Part shown: positions 1 through 44,166 of the stretch, in pieces | Layout: the number at the start of each line of letters is the position of its first letter | Position numbering within the stretch: the first letter of the stretch is position 1 | Notes under the pieces: model-generated | Told to the model about the DNA's origin: nothing | The model's input: only the letters and a program-made list of their open reading frames with translations | Database searches by the model: none | NCBI RefSeq assembly: GCF_054482525.1 | Contig: NZ_CM137006.1 | DNA length: 64,000 nucleotides | Reading direction: 5' to 3' (one strand) | Translations under genes and position numbers: made by a program

Positions 1-1100
1 ACCGTCTCGAAACGTTACCGCTGAAAAAATCCGCAACCATTGCGGTGGTTGGCCCGCTGGCAGACAGCAAGCGTGACGTGATGGGCAGCTGGTCGGCGGC
101 AGGGGTTGCCGATCAATCCGTGACCGTGCTGACCGGGATTAAAAATGCCGTCGGTGAAAACGGTAAAGTGCTGTATGCCAAAGGGGCGAACGTTACCAGT
201 GACAAAGGCATTATCGACTTCCTGAATCAGTATGAAGAAGCGGTAAAAGTCGATCCGCGCTCGCCGCAAGAGATGATTGATGAAGCGGTGCAAACCGCGA
301 AACAATCTGATGTGGTGGTGGCTGTGGTCGGTGAAGCTCAGGGGATGGCGCACGAGGCTTCCAGCCGTACCGATATTACTATTCCGCAAAGCCAACGTGA
401 CTTGATTGCGGCGTTGAAAGCCACTGGTAAACCGCTGGTTCTGGTGCTGATGAACGGGCGTCCGCTGGCGATGGTGAAAGAAGATCAGCAGGCTGATGCG
501 ATTCTGGAAACCTGGTTTGCGGGTACGGAAGGGGGGAATGCAATTGCCGATGTATTGTTTGGCGATTACAACCCGTCCGGCAAGCTGCCGATGTCCTTCC
601 CGCGTTCTGTCGGGCAGATCCCGGTGTACTACAGCCATCTGAACACCGGGCGTCCGTATAACGCCGATAAGCCGAACAAATACACGTCGCGTTATTTTGA
701 TGAAGCTAACGGGGCGCTTTATCCGTTCGGCTATGGTCTGAGCTACACCACTTTCACCGTCTCTGATGTGAAACTTTCCGCGCCGACCATGAAGCGTGAC
801 GGCAAAGTGACCGCCAGTGTGCAGGTGACGAACACCGGTAAGCGCGAAGGGGCGACGGTAGTCCAGATGTACCTGCAGGATGTGACGGCTTCTATGAGTC
901 GCCCGGTGAAACAACTGAAAGGTTTTGAGAAAATCACCCTGAAACCGGGCGAAACTCAGACCGTCAGCTTCCCGATTGATATCGAGGCGCTGAAGTTCTG
1001 GAATCAACAGATGAAATATGACGCCGAGCCTGGCAAGTTCAATGTCTTTATCGGCACTGATTCCGCACGCGTTAAGAAAGGCGAGTTTGAGTTGCTGTAA
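1..1100 (+). CDS. bglX: periplasmic beta-glucosidase BglX, C-terminal part (5' end outside window)
   Basis: Open frame runs from the window edge to the stop at 1100. The GH3 C-terminal domain sequence ending ...KGEFELL matches my recollection of BglX, and osmF follows downstream as in E. coli. Confidence 0.85.
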   Translation, partial: RLETLPLKKSATIAVVGPLADSKRDVMGSWSAAGVADQSVTVLTGIKNAVGENGKVLYAKGANVTSDKGIIDFLNQYEEAVKVDPRSPQEMIDEAVQTAKQSDVVVAVVGEAQGMAHEASSRTDITIPQSQRDLIAALKATGKPLVLVLMNGRPLAMVKEDQQADAILETWFAGTEGGNAIADVLFGDYNPSGKLPMSFPRSVGQIPVYYSHLNTGRPYNADKPNKYTSRYFDEANGALYPFGYGLSYTTFTVSDVKLSAPTMKRDGKVTASVQVTNTGKREGATVVQMYLQDVTASMSRPVKQLKGFEKITLKPGETQTVSFPIDIEALKFWNQQMKYDAEPGKFNVFIGTDSARVKKGEFELL

Positions 1101-9630: not shown

Positions 9631-11631
9631 TCATCCTTGTTGCTGAAGCATGTGGAATAATTGTTCGCAAAGCAAAACACCGTTATTCATTGCTTCTACC
9701 CGTGCCTCGCTTTCTGTATTACAAAATTGTGCCAACACATGTGCCAGCCGATAAAAACCGACCGCGGTGAGGTCATTCGCCAGCAACTCTGCCTGACCAA
9801 TAGCACTCTGTTCCTGATAGCGCCAGCCGTTATGGAGCAGTTGAATAAGTAACGCCTGGCAGCGCATCAGCAACTGATGAGCGGTAGACGGCACAGGCAG
9901 AACGCTGGCAGAAGGTAGCGGTGCCACAGGCGCAGTTTCTGCGTCCAGCGCCCAGGCGCGGGTTTTGGTCATCATTACCCGTGGTTCCAGTGTCAATTGC
10001 CCCTCAACAAAACTGACAAAGCCAGAAACCAGACTCACGGGGTCGTCTGTGTGTTGCAAAAGTGCCGCCATGCGTTCAACGGCAAAAGGCGCGCTGGCTG
10101 AGGCTGGCAGTGATAAAGTCAGCAGATTATCTTCACCTTCGCCGCTGATTACCTGCGCATCCAGCGTCTGGCGGCTGCTATCCCAACCGAGTGAAATACA
10201 CTCAGCGACTGGCAGAATAAATAAGTTATCCACCTGATTAAGAGGCCGTATGCAGGCGGGGGGACGCTGGCGTAAATATTCCCGCAAAGCCACAATGCCC
10301 GACTGGCGCAATGGCGCGCTCAACATTTGCCAGGCGTCTGGCGACAGCGGCACAACGCTGCTTAAGCGGTTGCGGGTAGCTAACAACAGCTCGCCATCGG
10401 CACTGCGTTTTGCTGCTTGTGAAACAATTTGCCCACCTGCCAGTGCGCCAGCCAGAAAACTAAACAGCCGACGCGTCGCTGCCGGTGAGTTTTCCTGTTC
10501 GCTTCTCGGCCAACTACGCGAAAGATGCAAAATACTGCCAGTGTCGGGATCGGTAAACCAGATGCGTAAACCATAATGCTCAATATCCTGCCAGCAACGC
10601 ATACCTAAAGACACCAGCCGCAGATGATCAAGCTTTGCTTCTCCGGCAATGCCAGAGCCAACGACCGTGCGCCACGGCACAGGAGGAACTTCACCAACAC
10701 TGTCGCGCCGGGCCATCTCTTGTGCGCAATTTAATCGACTGTTTAATGCCGCAAGCTGACGTAAGCATTCTCCGACATGATAGTGGCTGGCGCGGGCGTG
10801 GAAGGCATCAACGCTGGCGCGCAGTTGCCGTAGCGATTCACTCACCCAGCGCCAGTTGCAGCGTTCCGCCGCTTGCTGCGCGCGGCTGAAAGCAGCCTTG
10901 TAATGAATAAGCGGCTGGCTGATGCCGCCAAGCCATAACGCCTGGCTTAATTGCTGAACATATTGACGACACGCGTCGCCCTCATCGTTGGCAAACGGAT
11001 CGTCAGATGATGTGACGTGTTCGCTGCGCATCTGCCAGATTAAATGAGTAAATTCCGCTTGCTGCGCTTTGGCCTGGACAAAGGCCTGTACTGCCAGTAC
11101 GACATGTTCGCAAAGTGTGCCGTCAATACAATCACAGCGTGCGAAACGAATGCTGCTGCGGGAATAAAAACGTACATCGCTCATCGGTAAGCGGGCAGAG
11201 GGAATTTCGCCCGGCGTACAGAACAACTCAATGGTGATGCCTTTAGCGACCAGTGTCTGTGCGCGTTTGCGGGTGGCATCGGGCAGGGTAGCCAGTTCTT
11301 CCAGCCAGATTGCCGGATCCCACTCTTCTTCTTTTTCCGTAGGCTGGGTGGTGGCGCAAAGTCGCTGATAACTTAAAACCAGCATCACGCGATGGCGGCA
11401 CATGCCGCTGGCCCCGCAGCTGCATTGAGCCTCTTTCAGTGCCTGACCGTTCGCCAGCTGGGTGCGGACACCGTCACTGAAGGTGGCGATTAAAGCGCCG
11501 TTCTCATGGCTGATTTCCGGGACGTTGCCATTTTCCAGTTCTTTAAGGCTGCGCTTAACAAAACCGGCATTGCTTAACGCCGTCAAAGCTTGTGGTGTCA
11601 GTTCTAATAATTCCGGCCGTAGTGAATTCAT
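9631..11631 (-). CDS. yehQ: SWIM zinc-finger protein
   Basis: Two CxCx(n)CxH SWIM-like motifs (CSCGASGMCRHRV, CDCIDGTLCEHVV). It is the last gene of the yehLMPQ cluster, and its start overlaps the yehP stop (ATGA). Confidence 0.7.
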   Translation of the reverse strand: MNSLRPELLELTPQALTALSNAGFVKRSLKELENGNVPEISHENGALIATFSDGVRTQLANGQALKEAQCSCGASGMCRHRVMLVLSYQRLCATTQPTEKEEEWDPAIWLEELATLPDATRKRAQTLVAKGITIELFCTPGEIPSARLPMSDVRFYSRSSIRFARCDCIDGTLCEHVVLAVQAFVQAKAQQAEFTHLIWQMRSEHVTSSDDPFANDEGDACRQYVQQLSQALWLGGISQPLIHYKAAFSRAQQAAERCNWRWVSESLRQLRASVDAFHARASHYHVGECLRQLAALNSRLNCAQEMARRDSVGEVPPVPWRTVVGSGIAGEAKLDHLRLVSLGMRCWQDIEHYGLRIWFTDPDTGSILHLSRSWPRSEQENSPAATRRLFSFLAGALAGGQIVSQAAKRSADGELLLATRNRLSSVVPLSPDAWQMLSAPLRQSGIVALREYLRQRPPACIRPLNQVDNLFILPVAECISLGWDSSRQTLDAQVISGEGEDNLLTLSLPASASAPFAVERMAALLQHTDDPVSLVSGFVSFVEGQLTLEPRVMMTKTRAWALDAETAPVAPLPSASVLPVPSTAHQLLMRCQALLIQLLHNGWRYQEQSAIGQAELLANDLTAVGFYRLAHVLAQFCNTESEARVEAMNNGVLLCEQLFHMLQQQG

Positions 11632-12764
11632 GACTGAAGATTCTCCGCAAGCCAGGTCGCCAGTTCGCCCGGCGTCATGGCGGCTATTTGTGCGCCGACA
11701 TTAACCAGCGCCTGGGCCGTATCGTGGTCATAGCAAGGTGTTGCGGTGCTATCGAGCGCCGCCAGTCCCAGTACTTTGATGCCGCTCTGGACACACTTTT
11801 TCACCTGATGCGTCAGTAATGATGATGAACCCCCTTCGTAAAAATCGCTCACGAGGATAATGACGCTTTTCGCTGGTTGTTCAATAAGTTGCCGACCATA
11901 TTCCATGGCACTGGCGATATTGGTTCCGCCGCCTAATTGCACTTTCATTAATAACTCTACCGGATCGGCAACGTCTGCCGTGAGATCAACCACGCTGGTG
12001 TCAAACGCCACCAGATGGGTACGAATACCGGGTAACTGCCATAAACAGGTCGCCATCACCGCTGAGTGGATCACCGAGTCCACCATTGATCCGCTTTGAT
12101 CAACCAGTAAGACCAGTTGCCATTGTTCACTGTGGCGCTTAATGCGGCTGTTAAAGCGGGGGGATTCGATATACAACTTGCCGTGTTGCGGATGCCAGTG
12201 TTGCAGGTTGGCGCGCAGCGTACTTTTGAAATCAAAGTTTCGCGCCAGTGGAATAAATGAGCGGCGACGGCGATCGCGGACACCAGAAAAAGCCTGACGA
12301 ACTTCCTTTGCCAGTCGCGCCATAATCTCTTCAACAACCTGGTGCACTATCCGGCGGGCGGCAGCCAGCACTTCGGGATTCATCAGATGTTTAGTGTGCA
12401 AAACGGCGCGTAGCAGGCTTTCAGAAGGCTGCATACGTTCCAGCACGTCGAGATTCGTCACCACATCTTCAATGCCGTAGCGCAGTACGGCATCGCTTTC
12501 CAGCCGCTCGATCACCTGTTGCGGAAACAGCGTGTGAATACTGTTGATCCACTTAGGGGTGGTGAGATTTGAGTCACCTAATCCACCGGAGCGTTCACCA
12601 CGCTGGAGCCGTTCAGGATCGCGCCCATACAGCCACTCCAGCGCGTGGTCTATCTGCCGGGCATTGTCATCCAGCCCACAAAGGGTCGTTTCTGCCGCTT
12701 CGCCAAGAATTAATCGCCAGCGATGTAGCTCACGGGTGGTCAGAAGATCGTTCAGTTCAGACAT
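11628..12764 (-). CDS. yehP: von Willebrand factor A (VWA) domain protein
   Basis: 378 aa from the internal Met MSELNDLL. The VWA MIDAS-like motif LVLLVDQSGSM is present. The longer 454-aa frame lies inside yehM and was rejected. Confidence 0.75.
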   Translation of the reverse strand: MSELNDLLTTRELHRWRLILGEAAETTLCGLDDNARQIDHALEWLYGRDPERLQRGERSGGLGDSNLTTPKWINSIHTLFPQQVIERLESDAVLRYGIEDVVTNLDVLERMQPSESLLRAVLHTKHLMNPEVLAAARRIVHQVVEEIMARLAKEVRQAFSGVRDRRRRSFIPLARNFDFKSTLRANLQHWHPQHGKLYIESPRFNSRIKRHSEQWQLVLLVDQSGSMVDSVIHSAVMATCLWQLPGIRTHLVAFDTSVVDLTADVADPVELLMKVQLGGGTNIASAMEYGRQLIEQPAKSVIILVSDFYEGGSSSLLTHQVKKCVQSGIKVLGLAALDSTATPCYDHDTAQALVNVGAQIAAMTPGELATWLAENLQS

Positions 12765-15036
12765 GGAAAACTCCCCAGTGTTGCAGCGATGCCAGTGCCT
12801 GCTGTTCGAGTTGTTGATGATGTGCAATGGCTTGCGGTGGACAATGCAACGGCATTTGCAGCGCTGAAACGGGAAGCTGTGCGAGCTGGTAATGCTCAAG
12901 CACCTGATGCGCCAGCGTCCCGCGTTCTCGTGGTGGTAGCCAGGCCATCGCCGCACGCAAATCGGGCAGGGCGTTAATAAAATCGTCGTCACTCAGTTGA
13001 TTTAAATGACTACTGAAACCGGCGATAAATGCCGGCTGACAGGCCAGTTGATGGCGGGCCAGCGCCAGCAAACCGTGCAGTGCCTCGCCGGATTGTGCCG
13101 GGGATAATTGCGCCAGCATCGTCAGCGCCGCTTCGGCACTGGCGTTGGGATGTTCCAGACGCATCAGTGCGCCAAGAGCCGCGCCGCGATCCAGCGCCGA
13201 GGCATGAATCGCCTGACTGCGGCGCTCAAGTAAGGCTACCGCCGCAGAAAGCGAAACGCCGGGTAAATTAACGCCGCTATGTAGATCGCGCAGGATATGG
13301 CAAAGCGCCTGCCAGCTATGCAGGTGAGCGTGAAACTCCTTTTCCTCCGGTCTGCCGTTGGATTCACACAGCCAGAGTGTGCGATCGATAGCCGCGCATA
13401 ACGTCGTCTGTAATATCTGCGCGCCTTGCATACCGCTAATTTCATCCAGCCGCCATAAGGCGTATAGCACTTCCAGCGCCTGGCCCATTTCGGCAAACTG
13501 ATTTTCCTGGGCGATTAATAATGTAAGTTGCTCCAGTAATTGTTGACTGAAGGACGCCAGACCCGCTAACGCCGCCTGGCTAAGACATGTGGTGATACTG
13601 CCGATTCCACCCGCGTCCAGCATATCGGCTTCTAATTTATTGCGTGCGGCTTCCTGGAGTGTGGCACCAAAGCAGGCGGCCTCAATTAATGCCGCATGTT
13701 GGCTAAGCGGGCGGGTTAATTTCCAGCGTTCTTCACCGTTGCCTGCAAGTGTCAGTGTACTTCCCTGCTGGCGCACAACCCCTGGGATCTCCAGTATTGC
13801 CAGCCGATGTAACACCTGACTTTGCGCTAGTCCATTGGGGTTAAAGCGATTTAAGGTAAGCTCCGCCGGAAGAGAGATTGCGGTACGTTCCAGTTCGCAG
13901 GTGACATCTTTTGGCAGAGGCGGTTGTGGCGTAGAAGGGGCAAGTTTACCGAATCCGTCACCCGCTAATGTGTCTATCAACGTTAGCAGAATCGGATCGG
14001 TATCGGGATGAATAACGCCGCGATAGCTCCACGGCAACGGCGCATTCAGGGCTTCTTTAATCAGCGAGCCTGCTATGGCATCCAGCCAGTCAGTGCGTAA
14101 CGGTAGTGTATGACCGCGCAACTGTGCCAGTGCCATCGCATGCAGATGAGCGGCAGCCATATCCGCTGTTGAAGCAGGCAAGTGGTGCTGGCGCAAACGG
14201 GTAAGAACCGTTTTCAGCAGTTGTTCACCTGCCTGCTGCAAGCCCCACCGCCAGCACCAGTTTTGCCAGACCGGGGCAGGCATACCGGAAAGGTATCCTG
14301 CCAGCACATCAAGGCGCTTTTCACTGTAGGGTGTGAGATAACAACCTGTAACGGCATCATCCAGTAAGAGCAATTCTGGCGTGTTAATTACCTGCGGACA
14401 TTCGCGCCACATTTTTGCCAGTGCCGGAGCGTGCCAGCCACCGCAGACAACTAACACGTCGCCATTATTTTGCTGCATCGCCCATCCAATCCAGCGGGCC
14501 ATAAAGGCTTCGCGCTGACGATTGAGAGCATCTCCGGGGGAGTCGCCCCGCAGTTGGGCAAAATAGTGCGCAAGTGCAGAGGGTAATGCAGTTTGCTGCC
14601 TTTCATCTTCGAACAAGTGATCCCACAGGGTGTCGCTGTTATCCATGCGGGTGGCACGCAGCAGCAAGGTCTGGCTTTCCTCTTGCGTATCAGGCGAATC
14701 GTCCTCTTCTTCACTCTGCGCCCAGCAAGGCAAATCGATGAAGTAAGTTTGTGCCTGAATACGACGAGCGGCTTGTAGCGCCTGCCACTCCGGCGAAAAT
14801 TCAGCAAATGGCGTCCAGGCACCACGCCCGGGGGCCGCACCGTCCTGATACTGGCAATAACTGTAAATAGCTACCGGAAGCTGGTGGGCTAACAACAGTT
14901 CGTCTACCCGGTCATTAAAATCAGCCGGGCCTTCAATCAACACATATCGTGGCCGCTGGCTTTCGATTAACGATTTCACCAGCCGGGCGCAGGCCGGACT
15001 ATGATGCCGGATGCCGACAATTAACGGCTCGCTCAT
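12757..15036 (-). CDS. yehM: large uncharacterized protein (DUF5682-like)
   Basis: 759 aa from MSEPLIVGIRHH. The start is chosen by spacing to yehL. It overlaps yehP by 8 nt. Confidence 0.7.
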   Translation of the reverse strand: MSEPLIVGIRHHSPACARLVKSLIESQRPRYVLIEGPADFNDRVDELLLAHQLPVAIYSYCQYQDGAAPGRGAWTPFAEFSPEWQALQAARRIQAQTYFIDLPCWAQSEEEDDSPDTQEESQTLLLRATRMDNSDTLWDHLFEDERQQTALPSALAHYFAQLRGDSPGDALNRQREAFMARWIGWAMQQNNGDVLVVCGGWHAPALAKMWRECPQVINTPELLLLDDAVTGCYLTPYSEKRLDVLAGYLSGMPAPVWQNWCWRWGLQQAGEQLLKTVLTRLRQHHLPASTADMAAAHLHAMALAQLRGHTLPLRTDWLDAIAGSLIKEALNAPLPWSYRGVIHPDTDPILLTLIDTLAGDGFGKLAPSTPQPPLPKDVTCELERTAISLPAELTLNRFNPNGLAQSQVLHRLAILEIPGVVRQQGSTLTLAGNGEERWKLTRPLSQHAALIEAACFGATLQEAARNKLEADMLDAGGIGSITTCLSQAALAGLASFSQQLLEQLTLLIAQENQFAEMGQALEVLYALWRLDEISGMQGAQILQTTLCAAIDRTLWLCESNGRPEEKEFHAHLHSWQALCHILRDLHSGVNLPGVSLSAAVALLERRSQAIHASALDRGAALGALMRLEHPNASAEAALTMLAQLSPAQSGEALHGLLALARHQLACQPAFIAGFSSHLNQLSDDDFINALPDLRAAMAWLPPRERGTLAHQVLEHYQLAQLPVSALQMPLHCPPQAIAHHQQLEQQALASLQHWGVFHV

Positions 15037-15046
15037 GCATCTTTCC

Positions 15047-16135
15047 TCACGGCAGGCGGTGGCGAGCTTGATAATAAGCCTGCCAGTGAGCTTCTTTATG
15101 TGTGGCGACGCGCTGTTCGAAGTAACGGCGCAGACGCGCGCGATCTTCTTCGTTATCTTTGACGATGGTTCCGGCAATACAGTCCACCAGGTCGGCAGGC
15201 TCCCCCGCGCGATTCGCTAAAAACCAGGCGCGGACACCCACAGCATGGGCCACGTTAACGGCTTCAGCGGTGGACATAATCGCTGTCAGTGTATCCATTG
15301 ACGTTTTCTTTTCGCCGTTGGCACGCAGATCGCGGAACGTGCGCACCAGTAATTCCAGTACCGTGTCAGGCACTTTATGCGGAATACCGCTATGGGCCAG
15401 CAAACGCGCCGAAGCACTGGCGACCAGTTCCAGCTCCTGGGCGAAATCCATAATCGGAAAGACAGTTTCAAAATCGAAGCGACGCTTTAGCGCAGCACTC
15501 ATTTCATTGACGCCGCGATCGCGGGTATTGGCAGTGGCAATAATATTAAAGCCTTCTCGCGCATAGAGCTGACTGGCTTCACCAGTGAGTTCCGGCACCG
15601 TCATTACCCTGTCAGAAAGCATACCTAACAGACAGTCTTGTACTTCCAGCGGTGTACGCGTTATCTCTTCAAAACGGACAATTTTGCCGTCGCGCATTCC
15701 CTGGTAAAGCGGGGCTGGGACCAGCGCTTCCGTTGACGGACCATGGTTGATAAGCAGGGCGTAGTTCCAGCCGTACTTGATTTGATCTTCAGTGGTAGAT
15801 GCGCCGCCCTGGATGGTTAACCCGGCATCGCCGCTAATAGCGGTTGCCAGTAATTCAGACAGGAGAGATTTTGCGGTGCCAGGTTCCCCCACCAACATCA
15901 AACCGCGCCCGGTTGCGAGAGTGACTAACATGCGTTCGACAGCGGAGGGGCTAATCACGACTTTACGGCTAATATTTTGTGCTTCGTCGCCAAGGATAAA
16001 AGCGCGGGCCGCAGGCAAACTTAACTGCCAACCTGGCGGGCAAGGTGCGTTATCATTTTGTTTTAATTTTGCCAGTTCATCGGCGTATAACACAGCGGCA
16101 GGCGGACGCTGCAGATGATTATTCTGCGGTGACAT
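15047..16135 (-). CDS. yehL: MoxR-like AAA+ ATPase
   Basis: 362 aa from MSPQNNHL. Walker A motif LMLVGEPGTAKS. The RBS aggga lies upstream. Confidence 0.8.
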   Translation of the reverse strand: MSPQNNHLQRPPAAVLYADELAKLKQNDNAPCPPGWQLSLPAARAFILGDEAQNISRKVVISPSAVERMLVTLATGRGLMLVGEPGTAKSLLSELLATAISGDAGLTIQGGASTTEDQIKYGWNYALLINHGPSTEALVPAPLYQGMRDGKIVRFEEITRTPLEVQDCLLGMLSDRVMTVPELTGEASQLYAREGFNIIATANTRDRGVNEMSAALKRRFDFETVFPIMDFAQELELVASASARLLAHSGIPHKVPDTVLELLVRTFRDLRANGEKKTSMDTLTAIMSTAEAVNVAHAVGVRAWFLANRAGEPADLVDCIAGTIVKDNEEDRARLRRYFEQRVATHKEAHWQAYYQARHRLP

Positions 16136-16242
16136 ATATTCATCCCTGAAATGTATTAATGAAATAAACGATATTTTACGCGCAATAAATGTTTGGCGCA
16201 TTAGTTGTTTGAGCGAAAAATATCTGGAAAGCAGATCACAGT

Positions 16243-16335
16243 AAATAAAAAAACCTGCTGGTGAGGCAGGTTCTTTGATTTACTACTTTCAGGCCTAACA
16301 CCACGGCCTGTGCAACATCGTGTTCCAACGAACGA
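16243..16335 (-). ncRNA. orzO: candidate OrzO antitoxin sRNA (antisense to the zorO 5' UTR region)
   Basis: A minus-strand intrinsic terminator (stem cctgcctcaccagcagg plus U-run ending near 16246) sits upstream of and divergent from zorO. This is the architecture described for zor-orz loci. The ends given are approximate. Confidence 0.35.
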
Positions 16336-16567
16336 ATTATAACCATCGGTGGACCCCGTTGCAATTAAGATAATGAGATTTATAATCCTGACTGTTGGGA
16401 CGTTGCGCCGGATCGAACCCATTTCAAGTCCTGGCTACCGGACGGGTGGTGCCGCAGGTAGTGCCCTGATCCGGAGTGCAACATCGTGGTCCAACATACG
16501 TAAACCAGTATCGACAGGCAGTGTAAGGGTAAGGTGCTGGTGTTGCGCTCCTTAATAAGGAGAGCGA

Positions 16568-16657
16568 ATGGACACGCTGACACAAAAGTTAACCGTGCTC
16601 ATTGCTGTACTGGAGCTATTAGTGGCTCTGTTACGGTTGATTGATTTGTTGAAGTAA
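16568..16657 (+). CDS. zorO: type I toxin, 29-aa hydrophobic peptide MDTLTQKLTVLIAVLELLVALLRLIDLLK
   Basis: Short ORF with RBS aggagag, immediately followed by a strong intrinsic terminator. The peptide matches my recollection of ZorO from E. coli O157:H7. Confidence 0.7.
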   Translation: MDTLTQKLTVLIAVLELLVALLRLIDLLK

Positions 16658-16678
16658 TGGGCAAATTGAAACGCAACT

Positions 16679-16709
16679 AAGGGGGAAAACCGCTTCCCCC
16701 TTTAATAAA
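16679..16709 (+). terminator. rho-independent terminator after zorO (gggggaaaaccgcttccccc + T-run)
   Basis: Perfect GC stem and U-run seen in the sequence. Confidence 0.75.
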
Positions 16710-16852
16710 ATGATTACATCTTCCATTAATTCACCCGATAACTTTTTTCATATTTATAAATTCATCGATTTTATAATCAACGTACTATTTGGCCGGGATG
16801 TGAATAATCATGGTGGGCTATTGGCGAAAAATATCTGGAAAGTAGATCGTAG

Positions 16853-16945
16853 AAAATAAAAGAACCTGCTGGTGAGGCAGGTTCTTTTATTTACTACTTT
16901 GATGTTAAGTTACTGATAGTGCAACATGGCATCTCAACGAACGAA
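16853..16945 (-). ncRNA. orzP: candidate OrzP antitoxin sRNA
   Basis: Counterpart of orzO in repeat unit 2. The terminator stem is conserved but the U-run is weaker. Confidence 0.3.
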
Positions 16946-17176
16946 TTATAACCACCGCTGGACCGTGTTGCAATTAAGATAATGAGATTTATAATCCTGA
17001 CTGTTGGGAAGTTGCGCCGGATCGAACCCATTTCAAGTCCTGGCTACCGGACGGGTGGTGCCGCAGGTAGTGCTCTGATCCGGAGTGCAACATGGCGACT
17101 CAACATACGTAAACCAGTATCGACAGGCAGTGTAAGGGTAAGGTGCTGGTGTTGCGCTCCTTAATAAGGAGAGCGG

Positions 17177-17266
17177 ATGGACACGCTGACACAAAAGTTA
17201 ACCGTGCTCATTGCCGTACTGGAGCTATTAGTGGCTCTGTTACGGTTGATTGATTTGTTGAAGTAA
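17177..17266 (+). CDS. zorP: type I toxin paralog, identical 29-aa peptide
   Basis: Second copy. Same ORF, RBS and terminator. Confidence 0.7.
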   Translation: MDTLTQKLTVLIAVLELLVALLRLIDLLK

Positions 17267-17287
17267 TGGGCAAATTGAAACGCAACT

Positions 17288-17318
17288 AAGGGGGAAAACC
17301 GCTTCCCCCTTTAATAAA
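17288..17318 (+). terminator. rho-independent terminator after zorP
   Basis: Same hairpin and T-run as in copy 1. Confidence 0.75.
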
Positions 17319-17387
17319 GTAATATTCTATTAGTTGGTTGAATATATTCTGTAGTTTACGATTAAAAATTGCTATTACAGTTTCAGG

Positions 17388-17639
17388 TTATTCACCTCGT
17401 AATTTCCGCTCATCAATACACTCATCTCTTATATAAATCAACGCATCATTTATTAGCGGGTCAACATCCTCTCGATCACGTTGATGAAATGTTGGACGTA
17501 GCCGGAACCGTTCCAGTCGGTAAACGGAACCTGTAAATAATTCAGAGCATTTATGGATCTCAAGTCTGAAGGAAAACGGATCTTCAGGTACAGGGACCTC
17601 ATAATTGTAAATAGCGACCAGCTCTTTTTGCACGCTCAT
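17388..17639 (-). CDS. yehK: small hypothetical protein at the position of yehK
   Basis: 83-aa ORF between the zor repeats and yehI. Assignment rests on position only. Confidence 0.35.
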   Translation of the reverse strand: MSVQKELVAIYNYEVPVPEDPFSFRLEIHKCSELFTGSVYRLERFRLRPTFHQRDREDVDPLINDALIYIRDECIDERKLRGE

Positions 17640-17699
17640 CGCTTTTCCCGATGGTAAGTCGTGTTGATAACGGGCAGTCGCATCACTGCCCGTTGTGTT

Positions 17700-20600
17700 T
17701 TAATGGAAAATGACGTCGGGTGCGCTTAACGCCTCACTCAAATCAAACACATCAAGTTCGGCAAAAGTGACAGATTTATTGTCACGGTATACATGAAGAG
17801 AACGGAAGCTCATTAGCGCTTTGCTATCAACATTGTAGTGGTTAAAACCGGATGAAAACTTAAGGACCAGCCGGTACTCGCCCAGGTCATAGACAAATGC
17901 GTTCTCATAGCCTGACTCCCAGCCTTTGTATCGCATTCCCATAAGTTGCCCAACGGTAGCAGATTTACCTTCCCAGCGATTCAAACTATTACTGGCTGAC
18001 TCGTCAGGCGTGAGCAGTACTGTGCGCCGTGCCAATTGGCGAAAAGGCGGCATAATTTCGTAATCGGCAAAAAGCTGTGCAAACTCACTGCGCATTTCTG
18101 CTGCCATTTCTAACGGGTGGGCAATGCCAATCAGAGCATCGGCAGGCAGGTCAATTGGCTCATCTTGCTCATTGCAGAACTCCCCCTCAGCGGCCACACG
18201 AAAGGCGTTGAGTAAACGACGCGGTTCATTTGCCGGATAAACACCCCATATTAATCGCTGAGTAACCAGACGGGTAAAGGGATGATTAACAAACAGAGAA
18301 TGAAAATCTGCCAGCGACCAGCGTCGGGTGGTGCGCAGGGCAGTTTCAAGACGCGGGAGCAGGTTTTTGCTCACCTGAGTGGCATCTTTTTTTAGCCCTT
18401 TTAGTCGGGCCAGTGCCTCGGGTGCTTTCAGTTGATCGTCATCGGCGCGCAACCGGGGAACGCTTTTCTGGCGAACGTTTTGCTGATCAAAGATAACCGG
18501 GTTAAGGTTTTCATCGAAGCGAACGGTAAATTGCCGTGGACCAAAATCAAAAATCAACGCCTGCGGATCATCAAGACCCAGTGTTGGGACTAATCTGTCC
18601 GCTAACTGTTCCTGGCTTAGCCCTCGATTTTCTGCGACCACCTGAAGAAATTCCGCCGCGTTATCACGTAAGGGGCGGGATTTCGCCCGTTGCGATATAT
18701 GATGCAGCTGTATCAGTGCCATATCATTATTCATCTGAGTAAGGATGTTCAGGCCGCTGACGGCACGGGCAGATTTGCCTTCCTGTGGCCAGGCAAGGAT
18801 CTGTGTTGTTAGATCCCGTGCCGTGCTTTCGTCGCCAAAGAGACTTAACGCCAGAAATGCCCAGTTGTCTTTTGCGGGAGCACCAGCTTGTTGCCACGCG
18901 GTGAAAAGATCCCAGGCAAAGGCTGCCAGCGTTTGCGGCTGGCAAAACGTTTTCAGCTGTTCCAGTCCGCTATAAAAACGTCCGCCCTGGGTAAAGCGCA
19001 GCATTTCGCCGATAATTTCCAGAGCGTCATCAGTAACAGGTTGATTATTCGTGATAAGGCGCGGCCTGGACCACATTGCCGGCTGCCAGAAATCAGGGGC
19101 TTTTGGAATGCGTGTCGGGTAAATCTCTATTGGACTCTGTTTAAGTAATTGCTCCAGGGCAGGCCATACATCTTTACGCTGCCAGCGGTTTGCCACGGTT
19201 TGCAGTAACTCGCCATGTCCCTGTTCGTAAAGTAAACGCAGGGCAAGTAATGCAGCTTCGCTATTATCGCTGGATTTGGTGAAGACAAGAGGGATAAGTG
19301 CAGTAGCTGTATGTTCCGGCCATTGTAAAATCCACTGGCGGGCCAGATCTCGCTGCGCCGCGAAACGTCGCCAGACGCGGGCAACGGGCAGGGCCAGTTC
19401 GGTTGCGCCGAAATTTAAAATTAACGGAAATGTTTCTTTTGGACGATGTGAAAAAGCCAACAGCAGACCTGGTAGAGCATCCAATCCGAAGATACTGAGA
19501 AAATAGTCCTCACCCGCAGACAGATGCTTTTTCTCATTGATACGTAGCCAGAAAGTCAAAGCCATCTCACGCGGCAACTGCGCCAATAAATACAGGTTCC
19601 AGATACTCTTTTCCCGACGATAGCGTGAGTAGCTGTCATTTTCCCATATGTTAATTAACACTTCTACGTGACCGCTGTGAAGCGCCTGTTCTGCTAATTG
19701 AGCTTCCGGGGAGCTCCAGCCATTCATGATCTCTTCAACCCGCCCTGGGTAGTAATGCCACTGAACAATGAGTGAATTGCGTGCAGCATCCAGTTTTCCG
19801 GGGAGTATATAATTCAAAAACAGCCATACATCATCTCCAAAACCCAGCTCCTGTAGTACAACTCGTCCACTTTTTTGTTCCATGCGTTCCGCAAGAGATT
19901 CCGTGCTGAAATAACGGGCAGACGCAGTGGCGGCAAGCCTCTCTCGTTCGCCTGGTTGCCAGTAAACTTGCGGCGTTAATTCGAACGGTGCCAAATCAAG
20001 ACGTGGAACTGTCATTTTTTTCTTACTACGCCACGGTGGTGAAACGAGGATTTCAGGCATTTGGCTGTTATCGGTGCTATCAATAACCGTTTTGGACGGT
20101 GCCGATAAATAACTATTCAGCATTGCCCGGGCTTGAGTACTTAACCACGGCATCACCTCTTCTGCCAGTTGTGGCTGCGATGCCATCAGCGTTTGTAACA
20201 GCGTACGCCAGTATTCATCGCGTGCTTTTTGCTGTGCAGGCAGCTTTTTGTCTTCAATGATTGGATAACCAGGGCGCGCAGGTGGTTCTTTTAACGCCAG
20301 CAGTTCTGCTAATGCGGCGAGCGTCGCATGGGGGAAGTTTTTACTGTATTTAGCCACACGTTGCAGGCTGGGTTTGTTTTTATCAGCAACTAACAGCAAG
20401 GTGCGGATGACTTGCGGATGGTTAATTTGTACCAGCAGACTGCCGCAATCTTCTTTATGGGCATACATCGCGAGGCGCGGAACGGCTGCCAGTCCTTGTT
20501 CGCGCAAAAGGGCGGCGCAGGCCGCGTAGCCGAAGCGGTTTTCTTGTGACATGTAGCTGGCTTCGCGATCGCTAAATACGTCCAGGCCCCAGTATCGTTC

Positions 20601-36142: not shown

Positions 36143-36224
36143 CAACCAAACGACTCGGGGTGCCCTTCTGCGTGAAGGCTGAGAAATACCCGTATCACCT
36201 GATCTGGATAATGCCAGCGTAGGG
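36143..36224. repeat. attL-like 82-bp direct repeat: duplicated 5' part of the thiM TPP-riboswitch aptamer
   Basis: Identical to 44033..44114. It lies between rcnR and an integrase gene. Confidence 0.85.
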
Positions 36225-36307
36225 GGCCAAAATAGTCTTGAAAATTATGTGGTTGTATCTCTTTTTGACCATAAATCATGCTGTTAAGGTACAAAAAGGG
36301 GTCGTTT

Positions 36308-37615
36308 ATGAGGTCAAGAACTCTCCCATACACATTTCAGCGAAACGGTAATTACTATCTACAAATCCGGCTTTCGGATGGTCGGATATACAAAAAATCA
36401 CTTTTTACTGACAGTTATCGCGAAGCATCGGCGTTGATGATTGGCCTTACTCCGCACATTCCTTTCGTTAAATCACTCGCTACTCCGTTGCCGCAATTTA
36501 ATAAGTTTGTTTCAAACTTGATCGCTTCGTCACGTAACGTAATGATTCCGTTGCCACTCCCTCAGCAATTGAACAATATTTCTAAAGAAGTTTTGCAGCT
36601 TCAACCACCAGCCAAACCGGAAAAGGTACTAACACTTGCTGATGCGTGGGCTATGTACAAGGAGGAAAGAGGTCGAAATTGGACAAAATCGATCTCAATA
36701 GCAAATGAGCGTTATATGGAGGTATTGCTTGTTGTCTTGGGAAAAGAAACAGACGTAACGGCAATCACCAAACAAGATATTAAGCGAGTAATGGAAACTG
36801 TCGAAAACTTACCAAAGCGTGTAGTGCAACCGTATAGGTCAATGACTATTCAGCAACTAATCGAATGTGATGATGTGCTGCCAGAGGATTTAGTTGGTGC
36901 TGAGGCTGTACATAAGCACCTTAAAATCTACAAATCGTTATTCAAAACATTTCTGACTGAAAACAAAGATATTCTATCTAAGTCTCCGACTGATGGAATA
37001 GTAGCGGCACCATCCAAAGCTAGGTTTGGTGCATACAGTGCAGCAGAAATGAAAAAATTTGTAGGATGGGCACTAAAGCAGCCTGATGGATGGCAGAAGT
37101 GGATCACTTTGTTGTTGGCGTACACAGGAGCCAGAAGAGGTGAGATTGCTAAACTGGAGAAGTCGCAGATCAAATTTGATGAAGATAGCCAGCGGCACTA
37201 TCTTCTGATCGCGGAAAGAAGGCTGGGTAAAACTGAGAATGCTACAAGACAGGTAGTGATTCATCCCAAACTGATTGAGTGGGGGTTTCTGGATTTTGTT
37301 AACCGCCAATGGAAAGAGAAAATCTTTTCGGAAGTCTCAGGTCGAAATATGTCAAAGATAGGTAAAGTTCTTTCAGATGTTCGTGATCAGCTTGATATTC
37401 CTTATCTTGATGATTATGGGCAGCGGCGCTTGGTGCATAGTTTCCGGCATACTATGATTTCTACTTGTTTAGCTGGTTGGGTGAGTAATTTGGCGCATCT
37501 GCAACAGGTGGTAGGTCATGAAAAGAGTGGAGTAGGGATTACCCAGCGTTATCTGCACACATTCCCACTTTCCACCGTTTGTTATGTGATCGATGGTCTT
37601 TGTTGGGAGACTTAG
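36308..37615 (+). CDS. tyrosine-type site-specific integrase
   Basis: 435 aa from MRSRTL, using the start downstream of RBS aaaagggg; the alternative start is at 36278. The C-terminal catalytic region has R...HSFRHT...Y (VHSFRHTMIS, ITQRYLH) and sits next to an att repeat. Confidence 0.8.
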   Translation: MRSRTLPYTFQRNGNYYLQIRLSDGRIYKKSLFTDSYREASALMIGLTPHIPFVKSLATPLPQFNKFVSNLIASSRNVMIPLPLPQQLNNISKEVLQLQPPAKPEKVLTLADAWAMYKEERGRNWTKSISIANERYMEVLLVVLGKETDVTAITKQDIKRVMETVENLPKRVVQPYRSMTIQQLIECDDVLPEDLVGAEAVHKHLKIYKSLFKTFLTENKDILSKSPTDGIVAAPSKARFGAYSAAEMKKFVGWALKQPDGWQKWITLLLAYTGARRGEIAKLEKSQIKFDEDSQRHYLLIAERRLGKTENATRQVVIHPKLIEWGFLDFVNRQWKEKIFSEVSGRNMSKIGKVLSDVRDQLDIPYLDDYGQRRLVHSFRHTMISTCLAGWVSNLAHLQQVVGHEKSGVGITQRYLHTFPLSTVCYVIDGLCWET

Positions 37616-37743: not shown

Positions 37744-38469
37744 ATGGTTAAAAATTTAGGCAAAAAATACAAGTATGGCGATCAACCGATAAGAGCTATT
37801 ACCATACAGATAATTGCTAATCAGTTTGGTGGGGCTGCAACGGCTAAGCAGGTAGATGATTATCTTAGAAAGCTATTTCCATCTTATAAAGATAATACTT
37901 GGCTCAATTTAATTGCTAATACAGTTAATTGTAAGCGGAGCTACTGGAGTTTCAACAAAACTGCCCGACGAACTGATGATGTAACTCATCGGCATCATAA
38001 GTATGACCGATTGTTCAAGCGTGGAAATATTTTTGAAATCTATCAACCATCTGTGCACGGTATTTGGGAATTATACCAGGATTTAGAAGGGATGTGGCGT
38101 TATCGTCAAGTAAAATCGGTTTTCGAAGAAGCTGTTGAGACGGCTGCAAAATTATCTTCAGTGGAACGAAAGCAAATTTTAGCGACAGAAAGTAAAATCC
38201 CGGAACTAATCGAAGTAACAACACGAGTTTATAAACGAAGCCCATATGTAGTTGCTGAAGTTCTTTTGAGAGCAAATGGAAAATGTCAATATTGTAAGCG
38301 AGATGCTCCTTTTCTAAAGGAAGATGGTACTCCATTTCTAGAAGTTCATCATATTGAGTGGCTTTCAAAGGGGGGGGAGGACTCTGTGGAAAATGCTATT
38401 GCATTATGTCCTAATTGCCATAGACAAGCCCATTATGGCGATCTGACATTACTACCTGTTAATAAATAG
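37744..38469 (+). CDS. McrA-like HNH endonuclease (putative type IV modification-dependent restriction enzyme)
   Basis: The C-terminal motif CQYCKRDAPFLKEDGTPFLEVHHIEWLSKGGEDSVENAIALCPNCHRQAHYGD is a close pattern match to the McrA HNH region. The N-terminal roughly 150 aa are unrelated to any family I recognise. Confidence 0.55.
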   Translation: MVKNLGKKYKYGDQPIRAITIQIIANQFGGAATAKQVDDYLRKLFPSYKDNTWLNLIANTVNCKRSYWSFNKTARRTDDVTHRHHKYDRLFKRGNIFEIYQPSVHGIWELYQDLEGMWRYRQVKSVFEEAVETAAKLSSVERKQILATESKIPELIEVTTRVYKRSPYVVAEVLLRANGKCQYCKRDAPFLKEDGTPFLEVHHIEWLSKGGEDSVENAIALCPNCHRQAHYGDLTLLPVNK

Positions 38470-38894: not shown

Positions 38895-39004
38895 TTGTCT
38901 CCCTTGGTGTGTCAAATGGATGGTGATGCTAATAATACATGATTGATTCAAAATGTCACGATTAGTGCGTGGTTAATTGGTGCGTCAAATTGCATCTTTG
39001 TGCC

Positions 39005-39469
39005 ATGCGAAAGAATCTGAGATACCTTTTTGGACAACGAGTAAAAGAGTTCCGTATAGCTATTGGCTTAAGCCAAGAGGCCTTTGCAGATCGGTGTGGT
39101 TTTGCACGTAGTTATATGAGTCGAATTGAGCGTGGTTGCTCTAATGCATCTCTTGATGCAATTGAGGTTCTGGCTGACGCTTTGCGTATTGAGCCTTGGC
39201 AGTTACTGGCTTCTGATTCAAGGAAACCTGATGATCAGGAGGTACTTGTTCCTTATGCTGCAGATGGGTCGTGTTTTCATCCAGGATTGGCAAGTACTCG
39301 CGATGGTTCGTTTAGAGTAGGGGAAAAATCAGCCCAGAAACGTTTCAGTTCGTTCAATGAAGCTCTCGAATACCTTCGTGGAATGGAAACCGCGAAGTGG
39401 CGTAGGCCTAATGCTAGTGGTAATTGGGGAATTGTATCTGCGGTTAAATGGGATCGACTGAATCAATAA
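39005..39469 (+). CDS. XRE-family HTH transcriptional regulator with a C-terminal extension
   Basis: HTH reads LRYLFGQRVKEFRIAIGLSQEAFADRCGFARSYMSRIERG. 154 aa. Confidence 0.65.
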   Translation: MRKNLRYLFGQRVKEFRIAIGLSQEAFADRCGFARSYMSRIERGCSNASLDAIEVLADALRIEPWQLLASDSRKPDDQEVLVPYAADGSCFHPGLASTRDGSFRVGEKSAQKRFSSFNEALEYLRGMETAKWRRPNASGNWGIVSAVKWDRLNQ

Positions 39470-39635: not shown

Positions 39636-40187
39636 TTACGCCACCTGCTCTTTCTTGATACGTTGCACCGTCTGCGTGCTGACACTGAAATCTTTTGCTA
39701 CGCTCCGAATTGAGCCACCATTCGCGAGAGCGGCAGCAATTCCCGCTCGATCAATTGCTTTTCCATTACCACGTTTTGCTATACGTCCAGCGGCCTTGGC
39801 TGCGGCGATCCCTTCACGTTGACGCTCAAGCATCATTTCACGTTCCATTTGTGCCACTGCTGCAAGAACTGTGAGCATCATATTCCCTGCGGGAGAGTTC
39901 TTTCCTGTCTTAAAGTCTTCTTTATGGAAATGCACAGACACGCCGCGCTTTGTTAATTGCTCTACAGTTGCCAGAAGGTCGGCTGTATTACGACAAAGGC
40001 GATCAATACTATGGACGTGTAACACGTCACCCTCCCGCACATAGTTCATCATTGCCTCAAACTGTGGGCGCTGAGTGTTCTTGCCTGACGCTTTATCTTC
40101 AAAGACTTTATCAAGAGTTACTCCTGCTAATTGACGGTCTGTGTTTTGTTGCACAGTCGATACCCTAATGTATCCAATATTAGCCAT
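39636..40187 (-). CDS. small serine recombinase (resolvase/invertase family)
   Basis: N-terminal catalytic motif IGYIRVSTVQQNTDRQ with the active-site Ser. The C-terminal HTH reads SIRSVAKDFSVSTQTVQRI. 183 aa. Confidence 0.8.
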   Translation of the reverse strand: MANIGYIRVSTVQQNTDRQLAGVTLDKVFEDKASGKNTQRPQFEAMMNYVREGDVLHVHSIDRLCRNTADLLATVEQLTKRGVSVHFHKEDFKTGKNSPAGNMMLTVLAAVAQMEREMMLERQREGIAAAKAAGRIAKRGNGKAIDRAGIAAALANGGSIRSVAKDFSVSTQTVQRIKKEQVA

Positions 40188-40219
40188 CTTCTTTTTTCTT
40201 CTGTATTGATTTGTGTGTA

Positions 40220-40325
40220 GTGATTATTGAACGTGTTGATTAGGTGTGTAAAGTACTTTTTTCACTACGAAATTCGAAGTTTTTTAGTGTGGTGATTTAG
40301 CCTGCCTTATCACTACACTTCTTGC
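40220..40325. promoter_or_regulatory. candidate res/recombination site: clustered inverted copies of GTGTAGTGAT(T/A)A just upstream of the serine recombinase gene
   Basis: Motifs found at about 40226 (gtgtagtgatta), 40262 (tcactacg, inverted), 40283 (agtgtggtgatt) and 40309 (atcactacac, inverted). The arrangement resembles multi-subsite res sites. Confidence 0.3.
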
Positions 40326-40571
40326 ATGAGAATCATGTAGTTACATTTTGGTAAAATTAGCAAGCTATTAAATTGTGTGTTTATTTTGAAAAAATAATTT
40401 TTGTTGCATTAAAGAAAACTTGTTCGACAAATAATAGGTTGATTTTTGATCAATAATTTCTGATAGTGCTCTGTAAGCCGCATTACACAAGGCGCAGCGA
40501 AAGTGATGTAAAAGTGAAGAAAGCTAACATTGCACTTTTAAACTACTTTTCATTGAATTTTTTAGTATGGA

Positions 40572-40644
40572 ATTACACAGGAATAAGTTAGGGATATTCT
40601 ATGATTTACACAGGGAATATAGGGGGATTATGGTATTACACAGA
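40572..40644. repeat. three spaced (a/t)ttacacag motifs, 33 and 31 bp apart, upstream of the iterons
   Basis: attacacagg at 40572, tttacacagg at 40605 and attacacaga at 40636. Possible protein-binding array (DnaA- or IHF-like sites or Rep auxiliary sites). Confidence 0.35.
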
Positions 40645-40673
40645 GTGAGTGCTATGTGATGATTGGTAGTAAC

Positions 40674-40783
40674 GGTAGGTCACTGTGAACTAGGGGGGTA
40701 GGTCACTGTGAACTAGGGGGGTAGGTCACTGTGAGCTAGGGGGTAGGTCACTGTGAACTAGGGGGTAGGTCACTGTGAACTAC
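40674..40783. repeat. five tandem 22/23-bp iterons (TAGGTCACTGTGAACTAGGGGG), putative replication origin
   Basis: Copies start at 40676, 40699, 40722, 40744 and 40766. They are directly followed by an AT-rich tract of about 90 bp (40784..40870) made of ataataagactat-type repeats, a candidate DNA-unwinding element. There are no spacers, so this is not CRISPR. Confidence 0.85.
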
Positions 40784-41884
40784 AATAAGACTATAATAAG
40801 ACTATTAATAAAACTATATTAGATTATTAATTAGATCATAATAATAATATTCTTTATATCTATATATATATGATCTTTTGCCTTCCGGCGTTAGCTTCAC
40901 TCTCTGGCAAGCAGCCTTACTCCGCTACCTTTCGGGCTACGTTGGCTGGCCCGTTCCGCTCACACCGAAAGCAAAGCGTTACTTTCTTCGTGTAACTTCG
41001 TTGGCGGTAACGCCCACGAAGGAATACTATTGCGCTGTGCGCAGTAAGAGTAATCACCTAACCAATCATCTGATTGCTTACGTGTTAACTCTCTCTAACT
41101 CTTAATTACCCTCCTACATTTAATAACTCTCGTTATTCTCTGTAGTTGTGTAATTACTCGAAGAGAGAGCGGCTAAAGCTCAATTACACTCTGCTTTCCT
41201 CGTGTAATTTCACTAAGCCTCAATACAATTTCACTTCCTACATTCTGTAGTCGTGTAATTGTTTTCGGTGGAAAAGCCAGAGGCGACACCGAAAGAGAAT
41301 TCTGATCTTATTAATCTTATCTATCTTAGTTATCTTACTTACTTTATCTACTTTATTATTAATAATAGCTTTATAAGCTCTCTGTGTAGCTCTCTGACGC
41401 AAGAAACAGAGTTCAGGAAGGGAATCACCTTAGAAAAGTGTTCTTTGCGTCATAATGTGTTTTATGAAGGATTCAGAGGTGTTTCATAACAGAGATGTAT
41501 AGAGGATACTTTAGGTAATTAAAAATAAGGGGTCTAAATGCTTCTCTAACAGCATTAAGCAGGGTAGAGAATGGAAACCGCTTTGCCTACATATATAAAC
41601 TCACTACAGGGCTTTACAGAGCGTTTTATAAAGTGACTCTCTGTTTTATATCTACCATCACCTTTTCATATACCTAACAAATACAAAATAAGCCCCTTAA
41701 ATAAGCCTCTGGCGAGCTAAACAGCCATTACATAAGAGAATGTATTGCTTTTATCAAAACCTCGTTAGAACGCGTTTTAGAGCGTTTTAGCGGATAATGA
41801 AGAATAGCACTACACAGGAGAGCACGAATTGCTAAGAAAAAATGTAACTACATGAAAAAGATCAGATTTTTTGTGAAAAGGTAT

Positions 41885-41913
41885 TGACAAACGTCTCTTT
41901 CTGTGCAATAATA
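41885..41913 (+). promoter_or_regulatory. sigma70-like promoter (TTGACA-17-AATAAT) for the small-gene operon
   Basis: Consensus -35, 17-bp spacer and an A/T-rich -10, located about 125 bp upstream of the first ORF. Confidence 0.4.
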
Positions 41914-42038
41914 GGTATTAGAGGGACAGGAATAGATTCTTATCCTCTAAATAATTAAACCAATGCACCGCACTTTGAAGCCCAAGGCTTGTAAGGTGTG
42001 TTTTTTCTTTTAACCAAATAGAATAAGGAGGCTAATTA

Positions 42039-42468: not shown

Positions 42469-43158
42469 ATGATTAATCAACTAACTTTTACAAAACACTA
42501 TGACACGTTTGATAATGTATCAAAGATTTATTCTGATAAATTCCCTCAAGGAAAAGATTTAGATCTATTACATATTGTGCTTTATTTTCGATTCCTTAGT
42601 TATCAGGAAAACAACCTTAATTGTTATGAAAGTCACGAAACATTAGCTAAGATTTTTAAGTCTTCAGCGTCAACAATTAAACGTAAGATAAACGATCTTA
42701 AAGAGATGGGATTATTAGAAACATCCCCACATCCTGATCCGTATATTTCATCTTTGATTTACAATGCTCTCCCTCTCACAGATGCACATATTACTCCCCC
42801 AGGAGAATCATCACTCTCTGATCTTTCTGAGGCAGAAGAAGCACAGGAACAACCTAAAGGCCATAAACAGCCTTCTTTTGATGTTCTTGATGATTGGGAT
42901 ACGCCTTTACCCTGGGAGACGGAAGAAACACCTGTTTCATCAAGTGAAAAAGTAGCTAATGATAATGAGGAGGATGTGTTAGAGAATTTTGCCTCTCTTA
43001 TCATCCAGGAGAAACACACAAGAACAGGAGGAGCATCATTTATTGAGTTTGCAAATTCACTAGCTTGTAGATACGGGCTAAAACGACCAAATGGTATTGA
43101 GGCATATTTTTCTAAGAATTACCCAAATATATACGATGACTTTGATATTCCATTTTAA
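42469..43158 (+). CDS. 229-aa winged-helix protein with an acidic disordered C-terminal half, candidate replication initiator
   Basis: HTH-like segment HETLAKIFKSSASTIKRKINDLKEMGLLE. Strong RBS taaggag. It is encoded downstream of the iteron array. No recognised family without a search. Confidence 0.4.
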   Translation: MINQLTFTKHYDTFDNVSKIYSDKFPQGKDLDLLHIVLYFRFLSYQENNLNCYESHETLAKIFKSSASTIKRKINDLKEMGLLETSPHPDPYISSLIYNALPLTDAHITPPGESSLSDLSEAEEAQEQPKGHKQPSFDVLDDWDTPLPWETEETPVSSSEKVANDNEEDVLENFASLIIQEKHTRTGGASFIEFANSLACRYGLKRPNGIEAYFSKNYPNIYDDFDIPF

Positions 43159-44032: not shown

Positions 44033-44114
44033 CAACCAAACGACTCGGGGTGCCCTTCTGCGTGAAGGCTGAGAAATACCCGTATCACCTGATCTGGATA
44101 ATGCCAGCGTAGGG
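44033..44114. repeat. attR-like 82-bp direct repeat (5' part of the native thiM riboswitch)
   Basis: Identical to 36143..36224. It is contiguous with the remainder of the thiM leader. Confidence 0.85.
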
Positions 44115-44166
44115 AAGTCACGGACCACCAGGTCATTGCTTCTTCACGTTATGGCAGGAGCAAACT
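44033..44166 (+). ncRNA. TPP (thi-box) riboswitch in the thiM 5' leader
   Basis: The sequence ...ACGACTCGGGGTGCCCTTCTGCGTGAAGGCTGAGAAATACCCGTATCACCTGATCTGGATAATGCCAGCGTAGGGAAGTCACGGACCACCAGGTCATTGCTTCTTCACGTTATGGCAGGAGCAAACTATG matches the well-studied E. coli thiM riboswitch, both aptamer and expression platform. Confidence 0.9.

Follow-up and report, generated by a model that had tools for sequence, protein, structure and literature searches.

The small serine recombinase gene at 39636–40187 (minus strand) and the repeats directly upstream of it probably make up a self-regulated res/resolvase cassette of about 0.69 kb, which would resolve multimers of the 7.9-kb integrative island that carries it and that appears to have an iteron origin of its own. 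The island is inserted in the thiM leader of an E. coli chromosome and lies within the window, i.e. the whole 64-kb stretch of DNA that was analysed. Upstream of the gene, six copies of a 10-bp half-site, nnGTnnTGAT, are packed into 119 bp (40201–40319). The layout of these copies is kept, with changed half-site sequences, in homologues with 60–81% identity from Rahnella, Buttiauxella, Citrobacter, Yokenella, Leclercia and small plasmids.

The gene is intact and encodes a resolvase-type protein of 183 residues. In the domain search, residues 4–135 match the Pfam Resolvase domain (PF00239, E = 1.1e-38), and there are weak matches to HTH_23 and HTH_Tnp_ISL3 at the C-terminus (residues 144–179). 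Among PDB entries, Tn3 and gamma-delta resolvase align with the protein over residues 4–181, with the DNA-binding domain included (E = 3e-27), and this end-to-end alignment confirms that the gene was correctly called a small serine recombinase in the initial annotation. The residues Y6, R8, S10, R40, R63 and R66 are invariant in 16 homologues. By sequence, the Tn21-subgroup TnpR resolvases are its nearest characterised relatives among those compared: full-length identity is 51% (168 bits) to the Tn21-subgroup TnpR that adjoins a Tn3-family transposase in locus L091, and the plasmid matches that are 57–58% identical over the catalytic domain are tnpR genes beside Tn21-subgroup Tn3-family transposases. 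Five E. coli alleles of the gene were translated and all are intact; their dN/dS ratios of 0.03–0.05, with dS up to 0.25, indicate strong purifying selection. The four main half-sites (D, C, B and A, described below) are identical across the five alleles, and the whole region upstream of the gene diverges far less than the synonymous sites.

The initial annotation had named four motif copies upstream of the gene. All four are present: motif A (GTGTAGTGAT, 40215–40224, plus strand), motif B (TCGTAGTGAA, 40261–40270, minus), motif C (GTGTGGTGAT, 40287–40296, plus) and motif D (GTGTAGTGAT, 40309–40318, minus). The count was too low, as reading the sense strand beside that of the homologues adds two degenerate half-sites, CTGTATTGAT at 40201–40210 and ACGTGTTGAT at 40231–40240 (both plus). 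With at most one mismatch, the 10-mer has 7 matches in the window, where 2.26 are expected; three of the 7 lie in the cluster. A half-site weight matrix was trained only on three other loci (L015, L023 and L005) to avoid circularity. On both strands of the whole 64 kb it gives 44 matches of at least 9 bits, 6 of which lie within 40201–40318, and the largest cluster of such matches in 200 simulated windows is three. The cluster of six half-sites thus exceeds chance.

The half-sites can be parsed into three subsites, all given here in the sense of the gene (minus strand). Putative site I, the crossover site, consists of motifs D and C (40287–40318), an inverted 10-12-10 pair whose arms differ by 1 mismatch; it reads GTGTAGTGAT-AAGGCAGGCTAA-ATCACCACAC, with AAGGCAGGCTAA as the 12-bp spacer, and lies at -131. 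Putative site II (40231–40270) would pair motif B with ACGTGTTGAT in inverted orientation, 20 bp apart, with a -35 hexamer inside; with the matrix trained on other loci, both of its half-sites reach 9 bits or more. Putative site III (40201–40224) would pair GTGTAGTGAT (motif A) with CTGTATTGAT as a direct repeat, 4 bp apart. The grouping into sites II and III is a parse of the sequence. The order along the sense strand is then GTGTAGTGAT-(12)-ATCACCACAC, 16 nt, TCGTAGTGAA-(20, with TTTACA)-ATCAACACGT, 6 nt, ATCACTACAC-(4)-ATCAATACAG, 13 nt, ATG. The promoter-like site of the gene (40223–40252, minus strand) has TTTACA (40252–40247) and AATAAT (40228–40223) separated by an 18-nt spacer and agrees with the consensus at 10 of 12 positions. 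Site III covers the edge of the -10 hexamer, the likely transcription start and the 5'UTR. Judging from the positions of the half-sites and of the -35 and -10 calls, the four proximal half-sites thus enclose or overlie both hexamers and the likely start, and about 50 bp separate the distal inverted pair, site I, from the -35 downstream of it.

Recombinase homologues are numbered in thousands in the protein search, and the genome scan returned 80 loci. The layout common to the family is site I (10-12-10), a gap, site II (10-15..21-10, with the -35 inside), a gap, site III (10-4/5-10), 13–16 nt and the ATG. In most homologues the 10-12-10 of site I begins 129–157 nt before the ATG, and its spacer has the consensus tAaGCAnnCTaa. 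The equivalent of site II starts near -83 as an F-(15..21)-R pair that encloses a -35 of TTGAyw or TTTACA, and the direct 10-4(5)-10 proximal pair is kept in L015, L017–L020, L023 and L005. Two Pseudomonas homologues with 55–57% identity have sites I and II at unchanged offsets. The half-site core changes together with the predicted recognition helix: STQTVQRI goes with GTAGTGAT, STNTISRI with GTAGCGAT, STRTVMNI with TTGTAAT, APSTVQRI with GTATyCAT and STRTVQNI with GTAGTAAT. This is the pattern to be expected if the recombinase itself binds the repeats. The res-like reading first proposed for the cluster is thus supported by the shared geometry, the tracking of the recognition helix by the core, the purifying selection and the invariance of the main half-sites.

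The same data bear on the possibility that the repeats are an operator and nothing else, through which either the recombinase, as a pure repressor, or the XRE protein encoded nearby controls transcription, with no recombination involved. Such a role would suit the position of four of the six half-sites, beside or across the -35, the -10 and the start, and resolvases are known autorepressors, the res sites analysed containing promoters under resolvase control (PMC7157771). It is nonetheless improbable. All catalytic-domain residues are invariant and the gene is under strong purifying selection, and site I, although well upstream of the -35, is the most conserved feature of the cluster in both geometry and spacer. 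The XRE protein is disfavoured as the ligand, a possibility that the initial annotation had raised, because its gene is convergent with the recombinase gene and lies on its far side, and because the layout is kept on the plasmids L004 and L005, which have no annotated XRE counterpart and one of which has no other annotated gene at all. A core that follows the recombinase's own helix is also hard to reconcile with an XRE operator.

The extent of the cassette can be read from pairs of divergent loci in unrelated contexts. In 8 of 13 such pairs, homology runs from between -135 and -156, the outer edge of site I, to the stop codon, which defines a cassette of 0.69 kb to which nothing beyond site I belongs. 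Among these locus pairs, homology breaks at the centre of site I, which would be a trace of past resolvase-mediated exchange, were not found; the breaks are at its outer edge. In Enterobacter sp. Cy-643 (L013, at about 100–140), a transposase C-terminal coding sequence replaces everything to the left of the right half-site of site I; the junction thus falls within the site I spacer, which could reflect chance or targeting of res. Homologues of the recombinase also occur on plasmids of 2–6 kb, one of them ColE1-like with an RNAI gene. On pDETEC86 (L004, NZ_CP116175.1; 1985 bp), the homologue, accompanied by its res, is the only annotated gene; elsewhere this plasmid is rich in GGGTTACTCA-like repeats and shows neither a convincing second gene nor an RNAI match. 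Records of 1952 and 2000 bp with a recombinase homologue exist in E. coli and Salmonella.

Could the recombinase instead operate a switch, inverting a promoter-bearing non-coding segment between the upstream site and a second, inverted site? The protein scores leave room for this idea: the Tn3 resolvase match of 98.8 bits (about 99) is close to the Gin invertase match of 90, so that the PDB scores separate resolvases from invertases poorly for this protein, and its best PHROG family carries the label "DNA invertase". An ORF-free stretch of 1.85 kb also adjoins the site. The search for a partner covered the window and 19 related loci (15 other chromosomal loci and four small plasmids or plasmid-sized contigs), using the 10-mer with mismatches and paired half-sites with spacers of 10–14 bp, and found no second site I in either orientation; the paired search gave chance-level matches alone, with at least 4 mismatches. 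At 41806, a further match to the 10-mer with 1 mismatch stands without a partner half-site, and it is kept in the island of E. coli NC101, whose recombinase has a different upstream motif. The 18 listed E. coli matches that contain the recombinase are colinear through the site, the other 22 listed lying wholly beyond it, and six half-sites in three subsites are the layout of res and not that of a 26-bp hix or gix site. In the window and the 19 related loci there is a single res per replicon, beside the resolvase gene. One multi-subsite locus per replicon fits the needs of resolution, whereas an inversion system cannot work with it. The inversion alternative offered by the initial annotation is therefore very unlikely.

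The island is bounded by two direct repeats of 82 identical bases. The left repeat (att; 36143–36224, plus strand) lies inside a duplicated TPP riboswitch aptamer, and the right one (44033–44114, plus strand) is part of the thiM TPP riboswitch. Rfam places TPP riboswitches at 36146–36241 and 44036–44132, and RefSeq also annotates both, flanking the island beside thiM; the other Rfam result in the window is one sub-threshold tmRNA match. The left TPP copy scores above the Rfam threshold, yet the gene that comes next is that of the integrase and not thiM. To our knowledge, a riboswitch has not been described as an integration target. Read from its left end, the island encodes a tyrosine integrase, an HNH protein, a small hypothetical gene, an XRE-type HTH protein and the recombinase (minus strand), followed by the 1.85-kb ORF-free stretch, a small operon with a winged-helix initiator-like protein, and an HTH_73 protein. 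The integrase (36278–37615, plus strand; PF00589, E = 8e-7) is annotated as a tyrosine-type recombinase/integrase, in agreement with the earlier statement that both kinds of recombinase are present in one island. The HNH protein (37744–38469) matches a PADLOC model for type IV methyl-directed restriction enzymes (E = 1.3e-23) and the XRE protein (38969–39469) matches models of restriction-modification "control proteins" (E = 6.6e-17); these two genes between the integrase and the recombinase may be anti-phage cargo. The segment 39500–40900 is 100% identical to E. coli strain SCU-102.

Given the relationship to Tn21-subgroup TnpR and the same res geometry by parse, the cassette might be the remnant of a Tn21-subgroup Tn3-family transposon, a res-tnpR unit that has lost tnpA and plays no present role in the island. 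This origin seems unlikely. No transposase domain was detected between 36000 and 44000, RefSeq annotates no transposase there, and no ORF exceeds 445 aa, so that no Tn3-family transposase is present in this interval. The cassette occupies the same place in islands of three integration sites (thiM, tRNA-Gly and tRNA-Thr), and two specificity alleles of it are found at this position. Of 5426 complete E. coli genomes, about 291 contain most of the recombinase-plus-upstream query and about 12% contain part of the query, while about 654 have part of the adjoining non-coding region. The intact state of all five translated alleles and their low dN/dS also argue against a relic.

About 350 bp from the res site are five 22–23-bp direct repeats (GGTAGGTCACTGTGAACTAGGGG, 40671–40787), and with the adjacent AT-rich stretch these iterons form a putative replication origin (40671–40870). 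At the same place, related islands carry unrelated iterons, for example repeats of CCCCCACAGAATTCTGTTA in the NC101 island (L003, 9300–9450), which suggests specificity groups of origin and initiator. The candidate initiator is a 229-aa protein with a winged-helix HTH_36 domain (42469–43158, plus strand; PF13730, E = 2.6e-5, just under the Pfam cut-off). In the NC101 island a 217-aa protein, paired with it by position and not by alignment, matches PHROG families labelled "replication initiation O-like" (E = 2.6e-11). The tRNA-Gly and tRNA-Thr islands have the same order of recombinase, long non-coding region and replication genes. We infer from the iterons and the initiator-like gene that the excised island may pass through a replicative circle phase. 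No episomal form of the island was found; two contigs with homologues gave chromosomal or truncated contexts. The proposal of a plasmid ancestry or a plasmid phase, made in the initial annotation, holds in part: the recombinase family does occur on small plasmids, but the search found no real plasmid or phage relatives of the Rep-like protein, its only "plasmid" match being a record of 4.9 Mb, so that a plasmid ancestry of the replication module is not supported.

Non-coding DNA surrounds the putative origin on both sides. The block at 40405–40644 holds four copies of GnATTACACAGG (at 40480, 40570, 40603 and 40633) and is kept in about 360 further E. coli genomes that do not have this recombinase allele. 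Beyond the iterons, the ORF-free 40870–42038 (about 1.2 kb) is 94% identical in the NC101 island even though the iterons and the res/recombinase allele differ there; across islands it is mosaic, and the part that is widely shared is the last 400 nt or so alone. Four GTGTAATT motifs are found in it, and a strong promoter-like site (41884–41912) precedes the small-ORF/replication operon. The GTGTAATT and ATTACACAGG repeats (40480–41260) were considered as recombinase sites and not counted, as they score below 9 bits with the half-site matrix and are also conserved in the NC101 island despite its different res specificity.

Members of the wider island family share a mosaic non-coding region of 1.8–2.3 kb. 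Relatives of 10–12 kb at tRNA-Gly and tRNA-Thr (L003 at 10650–17760, L002, L007–L009 and L096) have an integrase as well as genes for a lambda-E-like major capsid protein, a tape-measure-like protein of 612 aa and a Dit-like protein; with such genes, the larger members look like phage satellites. These islands were absent from the phage collection searched. In one variant of the related islands, a large serine integrase replaces the tyrosine integrase. A copy of the island family with a 98% identical recombinase lies beside sopAB on the 166-kb conjugative IncF plasmid of APEC E19019 (L100, NZ_CP126938.1, 1–8300), its non-coding region interrupted by an IS3 element. In the literature searched, whose coverage was incomplete, no description of the island family was found. 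It is conceivable, as a tentative proposal, that these are an undescribed family of integrative, iteron-replicating elements of Enterobacteriaceae, 8–12 kb in size, in which the resolvase provides the monomerisation step of an episomal phase and res has a new architecture of two inverted subsites and one direct-repeat subsite.

For the cassette itself, we infer DNA binding, the grouping into subsites, autoregulation, resolution activity and the natural substrate, and these may be combined as follows. Dimers of the recombinase would bind the three subsites in front of their own gene, site I at 40287–40318, site II at 40231–40270 and site III at 40201–40224. Binding to sites II and III, which overlap both promoter hexamers and the transcription start, would repress the recombinase gene. 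Two directly repeated copies of the 119-bp site on the same supercoiled DNA would allow the accessory sites to form the synapse; such DNA could arise by tandem insertion, or by dimer or multimer formation of the excised island as it replicates. Ser10 would then cut the centre of site I, and strand exchange would free the monomers. Should packaging of the related islands start from concatemers, there would be no evident need for a resolvase at that step.

Taken alone, the cassette is routine mobile-DNA housekeeping and adds little beyond annotation. It is probably one further example of a known system, possibly with a variant third subsite, and the island family may be the more novel part. The analysis does provide a precise predicted res (40201–40319, with the crossover at the centre of 40287–40318) for an uncharacterised branch of resolvases related to the Tn21 type, and the matched sets of recognition helices and half-sites could serve the engineering of orthogonal serine recombinases. 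That an intact resolvase adjoins an iteron origin speaks for a life cycle in which this island and its capsid-bearing relatives exist for some of the time as free, replicating circles.

Comparison with characterised systems places the cassette among the resolvases. The invertases Hin, Gin, Cin and Pin belong to the same superfamily and are of the same size as the recombinase, the Gin match being the 90-bit one given above. DNA invertases act on a segment between two inverted 26-bp sites and also require a Fis-bound enhancer. The cassette differs from them in having one multi-subsite locus, for which no partner site was found in the window or the 19 related loci. The Sin/beta recombinases of Gram-positive plasmids are much more distant proteins (68.5 bits to this recombinase). 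The Sin res has two subsites with a host bending protein between them. The points of likeness are a role in resolving multimers, of plasmids there and presumably of the island here, and an accessory site with direct-repeat half-sites (PMC9943657), as proposed here for site III.

The Tn3/gamma-delta resolvases have the same fold and length as the recombinase and align with it over the full length, the Tn3 and gamma-delta proteins having five extra residues after Q19. The residues R2, R32, K54 and E56, which we take to form the regulatory interface of Tn3 resolvase, are A, K, Y and R in the alignment, and since they differ, inter-dimer contacts as in Tn3 cannot be assumed. In Tn3, res lies between the divergent tnpR and tnpA genes. 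By our parse, the spacer of site II here (20 bp; 15–21 bp in the family) is longer than in the res of Tn3/gamma-delta. An inverted pair is not found in all three subsites, since sites I and II have one here and the proximal pair does not. Three subsites over about 120 bp, a crossover in site I and autoregulation characterise the Tn3/gamma-delta systems (PMC9943657, PMC7157771).

The closest comparison is with the Tn21 subgroup. In Tn501, which belongs to this subgroup, tnpR is preceded by res; site III is the proximal subsite, and the crossover takes place in site I (PMC7157771). As in the res/TnpR systems of Tn21, Tn501, Tn1721 and TnAs3 (PMC7157771), the site here immediately precedes the gene, the predicted crossover being distal and site III nearest to the gene. 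Measured with the same ruler, the region upstream of tnpR in L091 reads CCGTCAGGTT-(12)-AACTTGATGT at -137, a 10-17-10 inverted pair, a 10-4-10 pair, 16 nt and the ATG; these subsites are a parse from sequence and not a footprint. The spacings match those of our cluster, a promoter-like site lies within the cluster in both, and the site I spacers are related, that of L091 (GAGGCATACCCT) having 9 of 12 bases in common with the spacer of the NC101 island (TAGGCATACCAA). The differences lie in the half-site, GTAGTGAT here and the unrelated GTCAGG in the Tn21 subgroup; in the site II spacer, which is 20 bp here and 17 bp in the L091 parse; and in site III, a direct pair here and throughout the close family but inverted, by the parse, in L091. 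Without tnpA, the island does not qualify as a transposon, and a transposition cointegrate is excluded as the substrate. In view of the shared geometry and the layout known from the Tn501 literature, the cluster is best read as a homologue of the Tn21-subgroup res.
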